This document shows, piece after piece, positions 1-8,120 of a stretch of DNA of 64,000 nt. Within the stretch, counting starts at the first letter, position 1. Each line of letters opens with the position of its first letter. The DNA comes from an uncultured Verrucomicrobiales bacterium (lineage in GTDB: Bacteria; Verrucomicrobiota; Verrucomicrobiia; Verrucomicrobiales; Akkermansiaceae), in NCBI GenBank assembly GCA_937128235.1, contig CAKZMG010000213.1, forward strand, positions 13,255-77,254. Reading direction: 5' to 3'. The translations under genes were made by a program, and so were the position numbers. The notes under the pieces were generated by a model. The model was not told the origin of the DNA. It did no database searches and saw only the letters and a program-made list of their open reading frames with translations.

Positions 1-800
1 TTTGTAACTCCACGCTCTTTGTATTCAATGAACTTTTCAGATAGTTCCTTAATAGAAATTGATGGCGTTAGATCAATTTTAGGTATTTCGGGAACGCCAT
101 CGCATTCACTGAAATAAGGATCGTTCACGTTAGATATTCCCTTTTCGAGAAGTTGCAGTGATTTAGAATAGCTTTCAACATACGCTCGTTGATATAAAGA
201 ACGCATTTCCTTAAACTCTTGTTTATCGACCACATCAGGCTCAATACCTATATCAGCTAAATATGAGGAAAGCATAGCGTCCCAGTCCATCTGTTCATAG
301 CTAGGACTCCCTTGTATAATACCTAGATTCTCCTTGATGTTGTCTTTAGCTTCTTCTTTCTCCACCTCTTCCAGACTATCAAAACGCCATTCATTCGCTT
401 TGTTTTCAAGCTCTAAAAAATGGTTAAGTATGATGTTTCTTCTCTCTGGTGCGGAAAGCGAACTGAATTTTCGAGTCGGTTTAGAATCAGAATTTATACG
501 GCGTATAATTTTATCTTCCTTCACCCCCTCTAGCTCTTGCCTTTTTAGAGCAATCTCGTTTTCAATTTTGAAATTCTCAGTTGCTACAATCCTTCTAGCC
601 TCTTTAGGGTCTTTAGTATGAAGCGAATAAATGAAAACCTCTTTAGGGTTGCCTGCTTTATTTAATCCAAAAGCGACTGCTTCCACTAAATCAGTAGGAA
701 TCCGCTTTTTGAAATAGTAAGTTCCGTCTCTTCTTATTGTATATTGCACCTTGTCAGATTTGGTTTGTGTCACAGTCTTAGGTGTCAAATCGTCTTTCAT
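1..800 (-). CDS. Tyrosine integrase of a second tandem element, N-terminal part only (runs off left edge)
   Basis: Manual translation from ATG at 800: MKDDLTPKTVTQTKSDKVQYTIRRDGTYYFKKRIPTDL...LHTKDPKEARR. This parallels the DUF6538-type N-terminus of the 5755 integrase (WYFRKRVPDKL...LRTTDKHKA). Starts 45 bp from the att repeat. Missing from the ORF track because no stop lies in the window. Confidence 0.85.
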   Translation of the reverse strand, partial: MKDDLTPKTVTQTKSDKVQYTIRRDGTYYFKKRIPTDLVEAVAFGLNKAGNPKEVFIYSLHTKDPKEARRIVATENFKIENEIALKRQELEGVKEDKIIRRINSDSKPTRKFSSLSAPERRNIILNHFLELENKANEWRFDSLEEVEKEEAKDNIKENLGIIQGSPSYEQMDWDAMLSSYLADIGIEPDVVDKQEFKEMRSLYQRAYVESYSKSLQLLEKGISNVNDPYFSECDGVPEIPKIDLTPSISIKELSEKFIEYKERGVT

Positions 801-2366
801 AGGTATTGACCTATCAAGGTTTCTAGGTTTTTCAAGGGTTTTAGAACAACATGGCGGAGAGGGAAGGAAGCTCCCCGAACTCCATTCAAGCCTTATTGCT
901 AAAGGGTTTGATAATTCAGAAGGGACACAATGTGTCTCACTTGTGTGTCGCATAGTTGTAAACTCACTATTCAACTCCGTCAATTCCTTTTCTCCTGTGC
1001 TTGGATAGAATACACCGTTTATAACTCTGACTAATCCTTTTGCCTTAGCCATTCTTAATTTATTCCTATGCTCTCTAGTCACTAGACCTACGCCCCCGCA
1101 AATCCTGCCATTGCTCTTGAGTAAGCTTAGTAAATTTTCTGACTCTGGAGAGCAGCCTAGGTTCTTAAACCATCTACAGGAAAAGTGTGTGGTTTTGGCT
1201 AGTTCTTGGGGAGAGTTTTCGTTCCATAGCTCTACATGCTCAAGAAGGGTATTCACTTTCTCTACTGCTCTTGCTTTTAATGCTTCTAGCTTTTGCCTAA
1301 ACTGTAGGTTTGATTGAGCTACATAGCCCCCATCAATCAGTCCATTTTGTTTAGGTGGCTTGTGTGTAACCTCAATGCGTATCCTATTAGAAAGTTTTGC
1401 ATACACTTTGATTGATTCTCCATTAGTTAAAAATAAAGTTAAGGTCTTTGCGTTTTTATCTATATTGAAATCGACAGCCTGTTCATCATGTATTCTATTT
1501 CTTGAATCTCTTCTAAATGCCAAGACTGGTTCTTTTAATCTATCAAGAAACTCTAAAGAATCATCAACGGTAAATTCCCAATAATGTTCGATCTCTTTTA
1601 GTGCGACTTCTTTCCAACTAAAACTTGTATGTATAGAGCCATTAGAAAAGGCGGTGGCATCGTTTAAACTTCCAACTATAGCATTAGACAATGATTCAAA
1701 ATAAAGCCTCTCACAGCGTTTGTATGAGGCTAACGAAGTATTACTGTGAAGAATATTATTGTTTCCATCAAGACTTACTAAGGCGTTCCTGCGCTCCACT
1801 GGAGCGATGATTTTATCTTTCCATGATTCTTCACTAAGTAATCTTTCAAAGTTCAAGTTGTAAGCTCTTGTCGGATTAGTCTCGATACTAGCAGAGGCGT
1901 CTGAAAGCTCTTGATTCGATTTCTTCAAATTTATTCTACCTGTAAAAAGAGGCACTCCCCACGATCTACCGTTAATGGTTAGTGGTGTTTTACGTATGTC
2001 ATTTGAATAGCTGTTATTCATTCCTGCATATGGGCTATTCCTACACAATAAGCCATATAATCGTATAGAATCTTCTCTGTAATGAGTTGGAGCAGCACCT
2101 AGATACATTCTAGTTTGTTCTAGCTCCTCTGGAGTGCTGATCATGAAGCCTAGATTGATCTTTAATTTCATTTTATCCAACCTAGCAGTATTTCCTGAAA
2201 CTCTTGTCTGTGGAGTGTAGTCTTGAAGTAATAGCGTGTGTGTCTCACTACTTCTCTCTCTTATGTCTCCTCTAGTGCGTTCACTGAAAGCCCTTGGGAT
2301 TACTGTTCGTCTCCTTGGTGGTCTTTGTAGTTGATTACTAGGCGTATTTATTATAGATTCACTCAT
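801..2366 (-). CDS. Uncharacterised ~500-aa protein, possibly a Rep_trans-like replication initiator. No stop codon; reads through att into the integrase frame
   Basis: Codon-by-codon reading from ATG at 2366 finds no stop down to 801 (522 codons) and continues in frame into the 800 ATG. Motifs RLDKMKLKIN and IKVYAKLSNRIRIEV loosely resemble Rep_trans initiators. The ORF is well supported; the function is tentative. Confidence 0.7.
845..869 (-). repeat. att core copy (attR of the 6.8-kb element / attL of the second element)
   Basis: aacaacatggcggagagggaaggaa, identical over 25 bp to 7668-7692, which overlaps the tRNA 3' end. Confidence 0.95.
922..952 (+). repeat. Putative integrase arm-type sites (TGTGTCNCA)
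   Basis: tgtgtctca 931-939 and tgtgtcgca 944-952 (13-bp period) plus inverted gggacaca 922-929. The same motif and period occur at 7589-7610. Confidence 0.65.
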
Positions 2367-2430
2367 ATCAAAGTAAGTTATTCAGCCCAGTAGCAACTCT
2401 CACATAGCTCTGGGCTGACTTGTTTTTAAA

Positions 2431-2787
2431 TCATGGCATTATAGGGTCTAAAGGATCGTTTCTAAATGATTGCTTCCCGCCCCACTCGTTAGGGAATCTT
2501 CTTTCTAATATCCACCCCGCCGCCTTCCAGTCTCCAGCGATGGCGGCGTTATCAATATAGCCAAGGAGGCGAAAGGCAGCCTCTCCGTTTGCTTGCTCGA
2601 ATGCCTTCCAAAACTCTCTTAATTCAGAAGAACTATCCTCTTGAACACCCTCTATCCGCCACCTGTTCAGGGTAGAATAAGAAATGCCAGCATAGGAGGC
2701 GGCTTGCTTGTAGGTGAGTCCACGGCGAATTGCTTCACAAACTCTATCAGCTTTTTCCTGAGTGAATGATAAAGGTCTGCCACTCAT
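2431..2787 (-). CDS. Terminase small subunit-like / HTH DNA-packaging-type protein
   Basis: GRPLSFTQE...LTYKQAASYAGISYSTLNRW HTH and C-terminal DWKAAGWILERRFPNEWG, a pattern typical of phage TerS-like proteins. Confidence 0.55.
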   Translation of the reverse strand: MSGRPLSFTQEKADRVCEAIRRGLTYKQAASYAGISYSTLNRWRIEGVQEDSSSELREFWKAFEQANGEAAFRLLGYIDNAAIAGDWKAAGWILERRFPNEWGGKQSFRNDPLDPIMP

Positions 2788-3134
2788 ACGCCCCCCTTAG
2801 TTAGAGATTTAACTTTTCCTGAAAGAATTTGCTCCAAGATGTCCTCTCCGTATTCAGATTTGATAAAGCCCTGCATTCGTTTATTACGACGCTTGGCTAT
2901 CTTTACCGCTTCCTTCTCTACAAACAGGTTAGCACTCGCCCCCGCCTCTCCCTTGGCTAGTTCAAAAGCTCTCTTGTAGCTGCTGTCAGTTTTCAACCAT
3001 TTATAATGAGTTTGACGACTAACATCTGTAAGGAAGCAGGCTTTAGAAATTATACCGAACGAAGCGATGTAAGCTTGAATAAAAAGCTTTTGATTTTGCT
3101 GTTTAGGGCGTTGCCTTGATAGACTTGGTTTCAT
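2784..3134 (-). CDS. Terminase small subunit-like / HTH protein
   Basis: QKLFIQAY...GIISKACFLTDVSRQTHYKWLKTDSSYKRAFELA. 4-bp ATGA overlap with the next gene. Confidence 0.5.
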   Translation of the reverse strand: MKPSLSRQRPKQQNQKLFIQAYIASFGIISKACFLTDVSRQTHYKWLKTDSSYKRAFELAKGEAGASANLFVEKEAVKIAKRRNKRMQGFIKSEYGEDILEQILSGKVKSLTKGGV

Positions 3135-3226
3135 AAAACCAATGTAACCAAATTGACAACCTTTTCAAGTGCGTAACTCCTTTATTTTAAGTCAAAACCG
3201 ATATTTTGTAAAGTTATTTCAGGCTT

Positions 3227-3523
3227 CTATTTTTTGTGTCGTGCTAAGAGTAATGGAATTGCTTTGTCATTCCAAAATTCAGGACATATTCCACCACTGG
3301 ATATTCCCCCATGACTAAAACGCTCAATCCAAAAGGGTTCTAATTGTGTAATTGATTTTTCCGTTACAGTTAGATATTCGTTTTGAATAAGTTCTAGTAA
3401 TCGACTCTTGGTTTTAGGCATCTCAATTTGTTTAAATCGCTCCTTGAGTTCTTCCCACAAATACGCATCACCTCTAAGCCCCCATTGTCTAGGTTCGCCT
3501 TCAAATATTTCTGAAATATTCAT
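3227..3523 (-). CDS. Hypothetical protein (98 aa)
   Basis: Clean ORF packed 5 bp behind the 3529 gene; PRQWGLRGDAYLW motif. Confidence 0.7.
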   Translation of the reverse strand: MNISEIFEGEPRQWGLRGDAYLWEELKERFKQIEMPKTKSRLLELIQNEYLTVTEKSITQLEPFWIERFSHGGISSGGICPEFWNDKAIPLLLARHKK

Positions 3524-3528
3524 AAATT

Positions 3529-4368
3529 CTATAACTTAAACAACCTCCTAGCATCAAAATGTCTTTCAATGTCCTCTAATGATTTTTTAAACAAATCTCG
3601 ATCTTCTCTTGCTTCATGGATGGCTTTACTCAATTCAGCATATATCATCTTCAAACTTGGAAACTCTTCTTTAAAAGAAGGTTTTAATGTGTCGTTATAA
3701 GCATCACCTAATTCATCACCAGTAGGGCGGTCAATACCAACTGCTAAATTTGAGCTTTTCCAAAACTGCTCAATTAGTGTTCTAAGCATAAATAACCCTT
3801 CTAAAATAGCCCCTGTATTGTAGTCTATTACAGCATCAGAGTAATATTTTCTTACACCCTTTGGAATATATTGGGGAGGAACTACAGTTTCAATAGGGGA
3901 ACGTCCTGAAAGAGTCAGTTTTAAGCCTGAGCGAGTAATTGTGAAATCTACGTTTGCATTAGAACATTTTTGGCAGACGAACGAGACCAAGAAAACTTGT
4001 CGAATTGGTGCTTCAAATACTCTTGAAGAACTTACAACACTAGACTCGGCTCTAAAAGCTTCTCTGGATTTACAACAATGACAAAAAGTTTGAATGTTTG
4101 GCAGGTTTATACTGACTTCACTATTACCAGTATTATGAATAGGTTGGCGACGACTGCAATAAACTGACCAAGGAGTGTTTAGAAGATTATTGATTGATTT
4201 GAGCCGTATTCTATCTTGATCTGATTCATTCTTCTCGTGATAACTTGGAAAAATTTCTTTAAAGGAGGATTCTACGCTTTGATAAAGGTGTTTATCACAT
4301 AGTAGCTTTCTAAGCATGTTCAGAATAATATTTTCTAACTCTTCTCTAGTATTCACAATTTTTACCAT
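3529..4368 (-). CDS. Zn-ribbon plus DUF4145/HEPN-like protein (possible defence cargo)
   Basis: CHCC...CQKC cysteine pairs, then YYSDAVIDYNTGAILEGLFMLRTLIEQ and YAELSKAIH segments resembling DUF4145. Confidence 0.5.
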   Translation of the reverse strand: MVKIVNTREELENIILNMLRKLLCDKHLYQSVESSFKEIFPSYHEKNESDQDRIRLKSINNLLNTPWSVYCSRRQPIHNTGNSEVSINLPNIQTFCHCCKSREAFRAESSVVSSSRVFEAPIRQVFLVSFVCQKCSNANVDFTITRSGLKLTLSGRSPIETVVPPQYIPKGVRKYYSDAVIDYNTGAILEGLFMLRTLIEQFWKSSNLAVGIDRPTGDELGDAYNDTLKPSFKEEFPSLKMIYAELSKAIHEAREDRDLFKKSLEDIERHFDARRLFKL

Positions 4369-4426
4369 GTCATATTATATCCAAGTGTTCCAGTTCAAAC
4401 AAATATAATATGTTCAGAATAGAAAA

Positions 4427-5248
4427 CTACTTTACCCCCACAACTTGACCATACTGAATATAAAACCACTGGTTATGAGTCACAGTAGCTCCCAAGCTGT
4501 TCTTGCCTGAGAATTTAGCCCTTACTACCCAATTCTTGCCTAGTGGTGATAACTTAGACCATTCAAGAAACTTGATAGAGTCCTTATCGGTGGCGTTGTT
4601 TTTCACATAGTCAACAACTACTGGAACGGAGGCATTGAACTCGCTTTGGCTTGGCTTTTCTCCAAGTGCAGAAATATATTTTTGACTGCGATCAATTTCA
4701 TCTTTTATACCTTTGCCCCATACATTGTTTTTAAAGCTATCTTCTTCAACGCCACGCCAAATATTCCTTACATTGGTTTTCTTGTGAGTCATGATCAAAA
4801 CCTTACTAGAACGGGAATACTCAACCACTCTTGGGAAAGTAGTTCCTGAATCAAATTTCTCGATATAGTCCACTCGTAAGCGATCTTGAGAATGGTTTTT
4901 CAATAGCCACCTCATAGCTCCATACTGTGTTGTTTTAGATTTAGGTGTGCCATATCCATCAAGCTTTACTATTCCGATATTCAACACAGCGGAATAGTCA
5001 TCAAAAACTACTGTGTCCCCATTGCTTAAAGTTTTCTTTTGTTGCTCTAGCTTGGGTTTCTCAGAAGGAGGCGTGTCATTCACTGGTTTCATCGTGACTT
5101 TCTTTGCTTCTCCTTGCTCACCAGAAGGTTCATTTTTCACAGCCGAGTTCTCTTTTTCTGAGAGATTATTTATTAAAGCAGCAACAATGAAGATGAACAA
5201 TACGATAGCAATACAGCCGAATTTACTTTTTGATTTTTTCGATGACAT
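4427..5248 (-). CDS. Membrane-anchored hypothetical protein
   Basis: Basic N-terminus plus one hydrophobic helix (FGCIAIVLFIFIVAALI), charged linker, soluble C-terminal domains. Confidence 0.75.
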   Translation of the reverse strand: MSSKKSKSKFGCIAIVLFIFIVAALINNLSEKENSAVKNEPSGEQGEAKKVTMKPVNDTPPSEKPKLEQQKKTLSNGDTVVFDDYSAVLNIGIVKLDGYGTPKSKTTQYGAMRWLLKNHSQDRLRVDYIEKFDSGTTFPRVVEYSRSSKVLIMTHKKTNVRNIWRGVEEDSFKNNVWGKGIKDEIDRSQKYISALGEKPSQSEFNASVPVVVDYVKNNATDKDSIKFLEWSKLSPLGKNWVVRAKFSGKNSLGATVTHNQWFYIQYGQVVGVK

Positions 5249-5290
5249 ACGTCAATACTACTTTGTGTGTATGGATGGTAAAGTCTTAAT

Positions 5291-5548
5291 TTGGAGAATG
5301 GCATTGTGCCAATAGAACCTAATTTAGAGTCAAAAGAACTATCGCAAAACATAGGGCGAGCAATAAGGGCTTTAAGAACTGAGCTTGGAGTGTCACAGGA
5401 AAAGTTTTCTGAAATGACAGGACACCACCCGAACTATATTGGTTTTCTTGAAAGAGGGGAAAGAACGCCAAACATCTACACATTGCTAAGAGTGGCGAAA
5501 GCCCTTAAAATGGAGCTTTCTGAATTACTTCAAAAGGCGGGATACTGA
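5291..5548 (+). CDS. XRE-family HTH transcriptional regulator
   Basis: IGRAIRALRTELGVSQEKFSEMTGHHPNYIGFLERGERTPNIYTL; divergent from the leftward operon. Confidence 0.92.
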   Translation: MENGIVPIEPNLESKELSQNIGRAIRALRTELGVSQEKFSEMTGHHPNYIGFLERGERTPNIYTLLRVAKALKMELSELLQKAGY

Positions 5549-5754
5549 ATCCTCAATGCTATAGGCTCCTAGTAGTTCTTTTGCTTTTTCCCCCGCAAAT
5601 GCTGTAATTGCTGTTTCTTGGCTCATACCATTATTCACGGCTCGTCTGATCGTTTGAAGATCAGACATGGCGTTTCCATTAACATCATTCAGCATTTATT
5701 CATAGAGTGGTGCATCATAGAGCGAGCCATCACTAGCTTTTATTGAATTAGGTT

Positions 5755-7629
5755 TCATTTTGAAAACTTTTCAAACGCCTCCTTGCATCCTTCTAAATCC
5801 AGTCCCTCGTAGGAAACTTTATCAATAGCCTCTTTGCGCTTTGCTATGCTAAACCCTTTTCCATATCCCTTTTCAGAACTTCCCTTACTAGACCAGCCTC
5901 CAAGGGCTTCACGCTCTTCTACGCCTACGCCATGATTCATAAGAGAGTCTTTGAAGCTATGACGTAAAGAGTGCATCGCTTTGCCTCCTCTTTGTATCGG
6001 TTCTCTATTGATTTTCAATCTGTGGTGAGCAAACCATTTGCAAACAGCCTGTGCTTTGTCTCCGTCTTTGCCTACTGTAAGACCACCAAACAAAAGTTTT
6101 CTTCTTCTAGTTTTCTTATCTTGGGCATACTCTAAAAAGCCAATACGCATTAGCTCATCATGGATAGGCAGGACTCGTTTACTACTACTATTTTTAAGCC
6201 TCTTTGTATTGCCTTGTTTATCTTCCCCCGCCTCAATATTTAAACACCAAACACCATCTATTTGAACAATATCAGAGGTGAATAATTGACATGCTTCATT
6301 AGCTCTTAGTCCGTGAAATAAGCATAACAGGGGAACCCAAAATCTAGCAGGTTTTGTATTCACCTGAGCAAGGTAAATTTCCAAGTTGAAGAAGTCCTGC
6401 ATTTCTTCGATACTAAGCATCTGTTTTTTCTTAACTATTATTTCAGGCAGTTGGTCTCTGAGCATTTTCTTTGCAAATGGATTGCGGTTTAATAGCTCTT
6501 TATCGGTGGCGTAGTTAAAAAGGCTTGTTACGTCTATGAATAAATCATTTTGACTTTTAGGACTAAGACGCACCTTAGATTTGTATTTCTTCACATACGC
6601 TTGGAGACTAATCGGACTTTTGCTTTTGAAACCTATGGGAATTTGACTGAGGTAATTTATAAATTTCTCAGCTTTAGTAACTGATATAGAGTCAACTGAA
6701 CTATCTTCACCAAAATAATCGGACACTATGCGACAAGCTCTAATTATTTTATCGTGTGTTTTATTAGTGACTTTGCTCTGTTTGAATTTCAGAAAATCAT
6801 CAATTAACTTTTGAATAGAAAATGAGTCTCTATTATATCTTGGGCTTGTGTTTGCATCTGTGATCTTTCCTGTATCATATCCAAGACCTTTAAAGAAAGG
6901 GTCTCTCTCTGCAAATTTGTTTCCATTGATCGCTTCAACATTCCTCCAATAGCTCTCGATAGTTGCACATTTCAGTTTATCTGAAAATCTCACAAACTTT
7001 TCACACGGATTTTCTAAGTTGATTTCACAGCAATCTATTCTCTCTCCATTAAGCAATGAAATAGCCCCTGAATGCCAATCGATAGGTTCATGATGGATTG
7101 AAGTTCCCTCGTGAACACATAAATCTTCCTTAGCTTCTACCACCGCCGCATAAATCAGCTTATCACACAAACGCCCTCGTTCATCCCTATATTCATGATT
7201 TCTCATAACTTGGAACTGATTTTCTAGTCTTGAGAACTCATTCAAAATAAGCTCTTTGCTTTCTATTTGCGTTAGCTGTTCAAATCGTTTTATAAAGGAG
7301 GCTGTATCATCGACTGATTTCCTCATGCTAGAAGTTTCAGGTTTTTTCCTGTGTTTTCTTTCTTCTAGTTCTTTTCTGAGTTCCTCAAGTTCCATGTTCA
7401 AAGCGTTAAGCTTTGAAACGGCTCTAATACTAGCTTTATGCTTGTCAGTTGTTCTAAGACTGCATTTTACTTCAATCCTACCGTAGGCTTTTACTAGTTT
7501 GTCAGGCACTCTCTTACGAAAATACCAAATACCTGAGTTTTTATCACGAATTTCAATATACTTGTCAATCATTGGGCAATCAGTGCTATGTGTCGCACCT
7601 TTGTGTCCCATGTTATCTTTCTTAGCCAT
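5755..7629 (-). CDS. Tyrosine recombinase/integrase with DUF6538-type N-terminus
   Basis: Catalytic motifs HGLRANE, HSLRHSF, LGGWS and GYG. Likely start is ATG 7629 (MAKK) or 7572 (MIDK), not the 7785 start that runs through the tRNA. Confidence 0.95.
   Translation of the reverse strand: MAKKDNMGHKGATHSTDCPMIDKYIEIRDKNSGIWYFRKRVPDKLVKAYGRIEVKCSLRTTDKHKASIRAVSKLNALNMELEELRKELEERKHRKKPETSSMRKSVDDTASFIKRFEQLTQIESKELILNEFSRLENQFQVMRNHEYRDERGRLCDKLIYAAVVEAKEDLCVHEGTSIHHEPIDWHSGAISLLNGERIDCCEINLENPCEKFVRFSDKLKCATIESYWRNVEAINGNKFAERDPFFKGLGYDTGKITDANTSPRYNRDSFSIQKLIDDFLKFKQSKVTNKTHDKIIRACRIVSDYFGEDSSVDSISVTKAEKFINYLSQIPIGFKSKSPISLQAYVKKYKSKVRLSPKSQNDLFIDVTSLFNYATDKELLNRNPFAKKMLRDQLPEIIVKKKQMLSIEEMQDFFNLEIYLAQVNTKPARFWVPLLCLFHGLRANEACQLFTSDIVQIDGVWCLNIEAGEDKQGNTKRLKNSSSKRVLPIHDELMRIGFLEYAQDKKTRRRKLLFGGLTVGKDGDKAQAVCKWFAHHRLKINREPIQRGGKAMHSLRHSFKDSLMNHGVGVEEREALGGWSSKGSSEKGYGKGFSIAKRKEAIDKVSYEGLDLEGCKEAFEKFSK
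7589..7610 (+). repeat. Putative integrase arm-type sites
   Basis: tgtgtcgca 7589-7597 and tgtgtccca 7602-7610, 13-bp period as at 931/944. Confidence 0.65.
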
Positions 7630-7667
7630 TGTGGAATAAGTAAGTATCTGATTATCAGTAAAAAAGC

Positions 7668-7692
7668 AACAACATGGCGGAGAGGGAAGGAA
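7668..7692 (-). repeat. att core copy at the tRNA 3' end (attL)
   Basis: 25-bp identity with 845-869. Confidence 0.95.
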
Positions 7693-7769
7693 TTGAACCA
7701 ACCCGGGACCATAACAGCCCCACAACGGTTTTGAAGACCGCGGCCACCACCAGGCAAGCATCACTCTCC
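7675..7769 (-). tRNA. selC: tRNA-Sec-like (anticodon UCA), 95 nt, encoded CCA; imperfect T and acceptor stems
   Basis: GGAGAGTG...GCGGT-CTTCAAA-ACCGT anticodon arm, long variable arm TGGGGCTG/TGGTCCCG, GGTTCAATTCC T-loop, GCCA end. Confidence 0.85.
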
Positions 7770-7786
7770 ATGTTGAAGTTGCCAAG

Positions 7787-7815
7787 AAACTAGTGCATCA
7801 TGAGGGCTAGTGCAA
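7787..7815 (-). promoter_or_regulatory. Putative sigma70 promoter of the tRNA
   Basis: TTGCAC-17 nt-TAGTTT on the minus strand, 17 nt upstream of the tRNA 5' end. Confidence 0.6.
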
Positions 7816-7841
7816 GAAACAATTATTGATTTTGTTAGATG

Positions 7842-8120
7842 TTATTTCACCTTCTTCATGAAAGGCTCAGGATTCGCTTCAAAGGCTTTGATGCAACTTG
7901 TACAACAGAATTTCACTTGCTGACCTTTGTAGATTTTGGTGTAGGTTTTCTTGGTCTCGCTGAGAGGTCTCTCGATGACTAGGCAGGTGTCCAGCGGGTA
8001 GGGTTTAGCCGCAGCTAGCTCTTGGGGGCTAGGCTGCGGAATGGAATTAGAAGCGCAGGATGTGACGAATATAGATAGAGCGATTGCTTGTATGAGTTTA
8101 AGTATGAGTTTATTTTTCAT
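7842..8120 (-). CDS. Small lipoprotein with YHS/TRASH-like metal-binding domain
   Basis: Lipobox VTSC; YPLDTC...YKGQQVKFCCTSC. Confidence 0.7.
   Translation of the reverse strand: MKNKLILKLIQAIALSIFVTSCASNSIPQPSPQELAAAKPYPLDTCLVIERPLSETKKTYTKIYKGQQVKFCCTSCIKAFEANPEPFMKKVK

Follow-up and report, generated by a model that had tools for sequence, protein, structure and literature searches.

The window analysed here is a stretch of 64,000 nucleotides (nt) from an uncultured Verrucomicrobiales bacterium (GenBank assembly GCA_937128235.1, contig CAKZMG010000213.1, positions 13,255 to 77,254), at the beginning of which a 6.8-kb integrative element (element 1, 845-7692) lies beside a selenocysteine tRNA gene (tRNA-Sec). 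An earlier note, made from the sequence alone, had proposed that an open reading frame (ORF) crosses the attachment (att) site of this island, so that excision and integration would switch the protein encoded at its far end and the integrase between fused and split forms. A repeat search of the window found an exact 25-nt direct repeat, AACAACATGGCGGAGAGGGAAGGAA, the two copies of which are spaced 6823 nt apart. One copy overlaps the tRNA gene, which the Rfam model RF01852 puts at 7678-7770 (62.3 bits; gathering score 47), and which stands 45 nt upstream of the ATG of an adjacent and co-oriented tyrosine recombinase gene, integrase 1 (int1). The G+C content is approximately 0.36-0.42 within the island as against 0.45-0.49 in the host flank past 7700. 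All the marks of a tRNA island are present: an integrase beside the tRNA, a direct repeat at the far end and a composition unlike that of the host flank. Because the joint 844/7668 is seen in sequencing run X3, where an element with an integrase like integrase 2 (int2) sits directly at the tRNA, the 25-nt repeat is the point of recombination. Two distinct elements thus stand in tandem at one tRNA-Sec; int2, the integrase of the second element, is 31% identical to int1 and 46% identical to the integrase of contig L002. Read on the minus strand, element 1 comprises tRNA-Sec, int1, a small ORF, a divergent regulator, three ORFs without assignment, two small helix-turn-helix (HTH) proteins and a terminal ORF of 499 codons, hereafter Fam (Table 1).

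The minus-strand ORF that opens with the ATG at 2366 is stop-free to base 1 of the window and reads ...SSGSFLPSPPCCSKTLEKPRNLDRSIP-MKDD into int2, as the earlier note had described. The frame likewise runs uninterrupted from the repeat copy at the tRNA (FLPSPPCC-CFFTDNQILTYST-MAKK) into int1, the ATG of which is at 7629, and the unequal att-to-ATG distances of 45 and 39 nt both keep the frame; these statements of the note were also confirmed by translation of the window. Joining the ends of element 1 in silico reproduces the 6823-bp circle that it had predicted, with one ORF of 3435 nt and 1144 amino acids (aa) and a single terminal stop. The predicted circle junction is ...GGGGAGC-TTCCTTCCCTCTCCGCCATGTTGTT-GCTTTTTTACTG, and the predicted junction peptides are SGSFLPSPPCCCFFTDNQILTYSTMAKK for the circle and SGSFLPSPPCCSKTLEKPRNLDRSIPMKDD for the tandem. 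The chimera of an element 1 domain with an element 2 integrase, which had also been foreseen, is real as an ORF: in the public metagenome contig L001, which carries the same DNA and extends 4.2 kb further, a gene caller treated the tandem junction as part of a single 1140-aa protein.

Table 1. Features of the tandem array and naturally fused relatives of Fam. Positions refer to the window unless a contig is named.
Feature	Position	Strand	Description
att copy	845-869		attR of element 1 and attL of element 2; minus strand codes F-L-P-S-P-P-C-C
att copy	7668-7692		attL of element 1; overlaps 3' end of tRNA-Sec
tRNA-Sec	7675-7769	minus	Integration target; found by ARAGORN
Terminal gene (Fam)	870-2366	minus	499 codons; ATG 2366; no stop ahead of att
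Disordered tail of Fam	870-1001	minus	Residues 456-499, not conserved; carries P arm of attP; predicted local distance difference test (pLDDT) score about 40
P-arm GACACA pair	931-949	minus	CGACACACAAGTGAGACACA, 13 nt apart; 66 nt before core; translates R-H-T-S-E-T-H; putative arm-type site
P'-arm GACACA pair	7589-7607	minus	GGACACAAAGGTGCGACACA, 13 nt apart; 69 nt after core, in int1 leader; translates G-H-K-G-A-T-H
Third GTGAGACACA copy	2239-2244	minus	5' part of Fam; border of disordered N-terminus and fold
Spacer, att to int2 ATG	801-844	minus	45 nt with base 845; open, in frame; translation SKTLEKPRNLDRSIP
Spacer, core to int1 ATG	7630-7667	minus	39 nt with base 7668; open, in frame; translation CFFTDNQILTYST
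Integrase 1 (int1)	5755-7629	minus	624 aa; ATG 7629; DUF6538 N-domain, SAM-like and tyrosine recombinase catalytic domains
Integrase 2 (int2), element 2	1-800	minus	N-terminal 266 codons; ATG 800; gene extends past window start; Pfam DUF6538 E=5e-14
Small HTH protein	2431-2787	minus	118 aa; terminase-small-subunit-like; PHROG 4102 E=7e-28; just upstream of Fam
Second small HTH protein	2784-3134	minus	Small-terminase-like; PHROG 4044 E=7e-6
Three cargo ORFs	3227-5248	minus	98, 279 and 273 aa; weak PHROG 1305 'DNA binding protein' match for the 279-aa ORF
Cro/CI-type HTH regulator	5291-5548	plus	Pfam HTH_3 E=2e-14; divergent from rest of island
Promoter-like site	2438-2466	minus	TTTAGA-17-TATAAT upstream of Fam; consensus scan only
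Fam-DUF6538 fusion P0037	L005 823-2598		
Fam-DUF6538 fusion P0038	L087 3174-4886		
Fam-DUF6538 fusion P0184	L088 148-1818; L089 151-1821		

An assembly or sequencing artefact, in which two related islands were mis-joined at their shared 25-bp repeat, could produce such an array, given a metagenomic source, repeats able to give chimeric joins and a depth of only about 2-7x in the probable source run. It is nevertheless considered a very remote prospect, as the junction also occurs in L001 and, in identical form, in run X2, whilst single-element states occur separately in runs X3 and X6, as a real tandem insertion predicts. The att-spanning frame is, moreover, independent of the tandem join, since it is present in the lone elements L006, L186, L157 and L074. 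Sequencing error, which the earlier note had named beforehand as fatal to its proposal, is unlikely because the separate public run X2 holds a 155-nt contig that covers 780-932 with 100% identity. Run X6 carries a copy of element 1 alone, approximately 87% identical, the frame of which is kept because two 1-nt indels compensate for one another; its ORF ends at a TGA supplied by the host flank, one codon past att. Between X6 and the window, 17 of the 32 listed differences in the terminal gene fall at third codon positions; in the tail three of eight do so, which is no bias towards that position.

Relatives of Fam were recovered by phmmer alone: an exhaustive search with the terminal protein returned 213, 21 of them at E<1e-30 and mostly of 410-590 aa. 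Word-index homologue searches, with either the 499-aa protein or a 32-sequence alignment, gave no homologue, and single-protein scans of genome and viral contigs gave no match to Fam. The alignment holds no conserved stretch of 7-10 columns; a degenerate DNA pattern for YAKxxxRxRFEV was used for locus scans and located about 140 family members in genome and metagenome contigs, mostly from Verrucomicrobiota and Alphaproteobacteria. Element 1 belongs to a previously undescribed family of elements of 4.5-7 kb with three core genes, namely a DUF6538 tyrosine integrase, a small HTH protein resembling the terminase small subunit (TerS) and Fam; no described family in the libraries searched matched this gene set. 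The clade nearest the window has the TerS-like HTH gene just upstream of Fam, and in L006, L074, L157 and L186 the DUF6538 integrase lies at the opposite end of the element.

The att-spanning frame recurs throughout this clade. At least 15 homologues, with 25-37% identity, end in (R)(V/I)-P-P-S/C-P-P in the same frame as the window, a peptide that is the translated 3' end of a tRNA-Ser, tRNA-Sec or tRNA-Cys gene; the PPSPP/PPCPP part sits exactly 22 residues past an H-x-S/T-E/D-T-Q/H motif. Both att copies were located in L006, L157 and L074 (tRNA-Ser) and in L186 (tRNA-Cys), and reconstruction of attP in all four leaves the Fam frame unbroken by stops as far as the integrase; the integrase of L002 (tRNA-Sec) is open from the core, as is that of L176. 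The first three are mutually related (the integrases of L006 and L157 are 68% identical), and L186 and both window integrases are 27-37% identical to these three and to one another; L006, L157, L074 and L186 fall into two lineages that diverged deeply. Homologues differ in the length of the linker that joins the fold of Fam to the P site and yet retain the frame, at around 30% identity across lineages. Recurrence in distant relatives, on which the earlier proposal depended, is thus found in the homologues, in these four further complete elements and in approximately seven lineages of a scan blind to ORFs (see below). Judged by sequence comparison, att read-through is a trait of the window's clade and not a one-off.

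All of these lineages, including L003 and L176, share a fixed attP layout of site, 66 nt, core, 69 nt and site. The 23-codon distance from core to P' site is the same in int2, L002, L003, L006, L157, L074, L186 and L176, and within the fixed 69 nt only the position of the integrase ATG varies, at 39, 45, 51 or 63 nt from the core. Because this geometry is fixed, being in frame is an inherited architecture and not an independent event in each lineage; the two frame matches that the earlier note had counted as independent evidence lose that standing, and a statistic that spacer lengths are all multiples of three was withdrawn, being explained by the 69-nt distance. Only stop avoidance therefore counts as independent evidence. 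The codons of the motif before att were compared in eight lineages, in which Thr is always ACA and Gln always CAA, with the upstream His CAC in six; since these synonymous positions are invariant, the motif is conserved as DNA, and a polyprotein cleavage site, considered for the H-K-x-E-T-Q motif, was set aside on the same ground. We infer that the GACACA pairs are putative arm-type integrase sites, which may be bound by DUF6538. Homologues carry an E/D/G-T-Q/H motif at the position of the third GTGAGACACA copy (alignment A1, columns 80-95), and several have repeated basic (A/P)(V/I)RKR units at the N-terminus; this suggests that DNA repeats may also lie within the 5' end of the Fam gene. One locus, L067 (minus strand, ORF 6217-7899), has a tail with the ETQ motif and a core apparently in another frame (G-M-E-S-H-P-L-C) and would thereby depart from the otherwise fixed P-S-P-P frame.

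Stop codons are scarce in precisely this frame. The 66-nt stretch of 12 loci, which had been chosen for read-through, holds no stop in the ORF frame versus 16 and 10 in the other two, and the 69-nt stretch of nine loci holds two, both in L003, versus 11 and 23. When contigs were searched for the geometry of site, 66 nt and core alone, without regard to ORFs, the site fell within a long Fam ORF in approximately seven lineages (loci L001, L006, L157, L074, L073, L007, L008/L054, L016, L068, L186 and L187) versus outside it in two to three. Spacers are open in six of seven integrase lineages, where composition-matched shuffling gives an expectation of 0.18-0.47 per spacer (0.47 for the 39-nt and 0.37 for the 45-nt spacer of the window); calculated from the shuffle values, this has p ~0.005, or ~0.02 without the window's two junctions. 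The window's own 44-codon tail before att would be open in only 0.04 of such shuffles.

These counts bear upon the view that the read-through is incidental, Fam merely abutting a DNA-constrained attP and its open frame reflecting constraint, shared ancestry and chance. Selection at the level of DNA is indeed apparent in the rigid 66/69-nt geometry and in the invariant synonymous sites of ETQ (ACA, CAA), neither the tail nor the spacers are conserved as protein, as the tail of the X6 copy also illustrates, and any one short spacer would be open by chance with a probability of 0.2-0.5. However, the stretches that vary freely accumulate stops in the other frames and almost none in that of the ORF, the long tail is seldom open by chance, the frame is kept over linkers of variable length between lineages that share only about 30% identity, and the ORF-blind scan finds more lineages with read-through than without. 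An incidental origin, for which the counter-examples L095, L062 and L003 described below also speak, is therefore judged distinctly unlikely.

Natural fusions provide a second line of evidence. P0037, P0038 and P0184 are complete genes that encode the Fam domain joined through a short linker to DUF6538 and one helix, followed by a stop; they lack an att core, and no catalytic domain lies beyond the stop. As their nearest relatives are att-spanning forms (46-47% identity), they arose independently. The linker of L005 appears to have arisen by loss of the DNA between its P and P' sites, and the predicted disorder of the tail fits the role of a linker. Taken together, the comparisons indicate that the att-spanning frame is a real composite gene, probably under selection.

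Several observations weigh against this reading. L095 has the full geometry, yet its Fam ends right after the fold, in another frame and with a stop in the inter-site stretch; in L062 some 900 nt separate the Fam stop from the site beyond it, and L166 is perhaps a third lineage with its site outside the Fam ORF. L003 has two spacer stops and no Fam gene within 10 kb; in both L003 and L095 the fixed geometry holds despite a closed frame. The close members L026, L036, L052 and L084 end 3-7 residues past the fold with no adjoining attP, and the distant DUF6538 integrases of L004, L104, L114 and L154 show random frames or stops. Among the best 150 of the 213 relatives the long fusion comes from the window itself alone, only three deep lineages of complete elements were rebuilt, and the integrases have their own ATG. 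Neither a circle, an attP read, a transcript nor a junction peptide was seen in assembled contigs, which are unsuited to rare circular junctions, and the contigs of run X7 were uninformative. Because of L095, L062 and L003, read-through must be dispensable in some lineages. Of the regularities that the earlier note had anticipated, a terminal ORF without a stop before attR is accordingly usual in the closest clade and fails in L095 and L062, and the frame from att to the integrase is open in six of seven integrase lineages and fails in L003. The predicted read-through is frequent and non-random, and it is not obligatory.

Beyond the att-spanning clade, contigs L190 (10001-12382) and L188 (79-5355) of IMG/VR carry a distant DUF6538 integrase with a distant family member immediately after it or no more than 2 kb further on, and the pairing of integrase and Fam therefore extends past that clade. 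The att sites of the distant 'group B' elements L104, L114 and L176 were not located beside the family gene. In L004 (80-5000), a DUF6538-integrase island carries KwaA/KwaB of the Kiwa anti-phage defence system and a DNA methyltransferase; behind the island come another integrase and a distant member of the family.

The terminal protein had been called Rep-like, a label that proved unsupported: neither Pfam, PHROGs, NCBIfam, PDB profiles nor Foldseek showed similarity of sequence or fold to a Rep protein, a primase or a relaxase. Fam has no match in Pfam, PHROGs, NCBIfam or PADLOC, and a PDB profile search returned nothing at E<0.2. Structure prediction, which the earlier note had advised and which was run on the terminal protein, gave a fold that matches no known family. 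With an alignment of 32 relatives, AlphaFold2 reached a pLDDT of 82.8 and a predicted template modelling score of 0.78 (pLDDT 30 from the single sequence). In this model residues 41-460 fold into two beta-sheet-plus-helix modules and a C-terminal winged-helix-like unit, with residues 1-40 and 461-507 disordered. Foldseek matches were weak both in PDB (best E=1e-3, TM<0.15) and in BFVD (best E=5e-6, TM 0.30; TBP/TFIID-like proteins of giant viruses were among those ranked next). Residues E260, Y322, K324, R330 and E332 are invariant in the homologue alignment, which suggests that they may form an active or DNA-binding site. Two candidate identities were rejected: an HUH relaxase, as TrwC ranked only 20th (E=0.12) and the conserved histidines are absent, and a large terminase, prompted by the TerS-like neighbour, as Pfam and PHROGs gave no terminase-family match. 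From its predicted features, Fam is a roughly 450-residue member of an unannotated protein family.

The int1 protein matches PF20172 and PF00589 in Pfam and PHROG 1 (E=8e-32) and is present in a public collection as a 624-aa protein, whilst the complete int2 part comprises 618 aa in L001 (10300-12156). In L074, a 4.5-kb Luteolibacter element, the integrase (1800-3829) is split over two frames by a frameshift or a genome-bin assembly error. The 118-aa HTH protein is 47-55% identical to the gene in the same position in L005, L006, L007, L087 and L186, and its homologue in L187 clears the Pfam Sf6_terminase threshold. The three cargo ORFs have no match in Pfam or PADLOC, the latter including defence systems. 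Element 2, part of the tandem stretch of L001 (8734-15345), encodes int2, ORFs of 326 and 182 aa, a Cro/CI-type HTH protein, a membrane-like ORF of 261 aa and a resolvase, and its far end lies beyond this contig. Resolvase (serine recombinase) genes are a recurrent cargo, being found in L006, L007, L008, L186, L187 and L001 (15154-15345). In L187 (11557-16882) an att-spanning family member stands directly beside selD, selA and selB in a selenocysteine locus, and from this neighbourhood the tRNA-Sec locus seems to be a recurrent target.

The arrangement most consistent with these observations is one in which attP lies inside the composite gene, such that integration splits the gene and excision or tandem insertion rejoins it into a Fam-linker-integrase product; the chances of this being correct are put at about even. 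In the window's clade the Fam gene has no stop of its own, the disordered C-terminal tail is encoded by the P arm and the core is read as P-S-P-P, whilst the P' arm runs for 69 nt to the second GACACA pair, by which point the integrase coding sequence has begun. Where a tRNA-Sec, tRNA-Ser or tRNA-Cys gene is the target, integration would split the composite frame; Fam would then end at a stop in the host flank, which comes one codon past att in the lone copy and as many as some 70 codons past it in relatives, and the integrase would be made from its own ATG beside the tRNA. Excision, or a tandem second insertion, would rejoin the frame, and the promoter of Fam would then drive a fusion of approximately 1140 aa.

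The same topology could serve expression alone: an open frame would let transcription of the Fam operon, and its ribosomes, cross attP into the integrase gene with neither polarity nor premature termination, and integrase would be produced in a burst once the element had excised or been transferred. The fusion itself would be a by-product, either tolerated or processed. This explanation, which is held to be unlikely, accords with the rep-attP-int operon of integration-dependent immunity, in which one promoter serves both genes (PMC3694055). It also accords with the promoter-like site upstream of Fam, with a consensus scan of the minus strand that found no terminator-like site between the Fam gene and att, with the retention by the integrases of an ATG at a variable 39-63 nt from the core, and with the lineages that lack read-through. 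A stop near the integrase ATG would, however, do as well, yet none occurs in six of seven lineages, and the independent permanent Fam-DUF6538 fusions suggest that a covalent link is useful. Most island genes have no clear ribosome-binding site, and this feature is therefore uninformative. An inverted repeat, GGGACACAATGTGTCTC, at 922-938 overlaps the second P-arm GACACA site and is terminator-like on the plus strand only.

Returning to the split and rejoined composite gene, we infer that its fused product would be translated and of consequence; it is possible that the fusion provides or tethers integrase in the circular form alone and so acts as a read-out of the state of integration. A stronger version, offered tentatively and regarded as possible rather than probable, is that the fused polypeptide made from the circle or tandem behaves unlike the free integrase, so that recombination toggles between fused and split forms as a protein-level memory of integration. 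The fused form might, for example, integrate and not excise, or Fam might anchor it at the GACACA arm sites, and the permanent Fam-DUF6538 fusions would represent a frozen fused state. If the fusion is functional, the direction of recombination would be under built-in control with no need of a separate excisionase, and the system would offer a ready-made design for reporters of recombination state. A large unannotated protein family, the three-gene core of an element and a rigid attP architecture have been missed by annotation pipelines, which label the product a 1140-aa 'integrase' or truncate it.

Genes whose products change upon integration are, to our knowledge, known in few forms, namely the repressor tags of mycobacteriophages and the split integrases of archaeal viruses. 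In the present case each recombination would attach a 500-residue partner to a full-length bacterial integrase or detach it, in a layout that is kept over Verrucomicrobiota-type and other hosts. The archaeal integrase genes of the SSV1/pTN3 type contain attP, and integration cuts the integrase into N- and C-terminal parts and disables it. As in that system, recombination at attP would split and rejoin a frame that contains the integrase; in contrast to it, int1 remains whole after att, with its DUF6538, SAM-like and catalytic domains and its own ATG, and only an N-terminal partner is detached. In ICEclc, the outward promoter Pcirc drives the integrase only in the circular form. There, as here, joined ends place the integrase gene behind the expression signals of the other end and make its supply dependent on excision; the junction of ICEclc is purely transcriptional, whereas the present one is a continuous codon frame. 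The island resembles tRNA islands with lambda-type integrases in having its integrase at the 3' end of a tRNA gene, a direct repeat, a lower G+C content and a tandem pair, and differs from P4-type tRNA islands (DUF4102) in the DUF6538 N-domain of its integrase. Like the phage satellites (PICI, PICMI), it is small, with an integrase at one end, a Cro/CI-type regulator and terminase-small-subunit-like genes; unlike them, it has no recognisable capsid-remodelling or replication genes and no known helper phage. Membership of the PICMI satellites, which are defined by int, alpA and primase (PMC10803314), was rejected, as the AlpA and primase families were unmatched in all island ORFs (Pfam, PHROGs).

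By analogy, the closest known system is the integration-dependent immunity of mycobacteriophages of the BPs, Brujita and Charlie type, in which the ORF that contains attP is that of the repressor, upstream of int, and one promoter serves both genes (PMC3694055). Of the features of such an attP-in-gene switch, the core inside a gene upstream of int was found here, and a repressor partner and a short degradation tag were not: Fam, a 420-residue fold plus winged helix, has no repressor-type domain match, and the HTH_3 regulator is separate. Both systems place attP inside a gene that is co-directional with and just upstream of int, and in both integration would alter the C-terminus of the upstream protein, whereby the products of the element signal whether it is integrated (PMC3694055). 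The mycobacteriophages, however, combine a repressor partner and a short degradation tag that ends before int with an integrase described without arm-type sites (PMC3694055), whereas the element of the window combines a 500-residue Fam with a stop-free extension through the whole integrase and putative arm-type repeats on both sides of the core.

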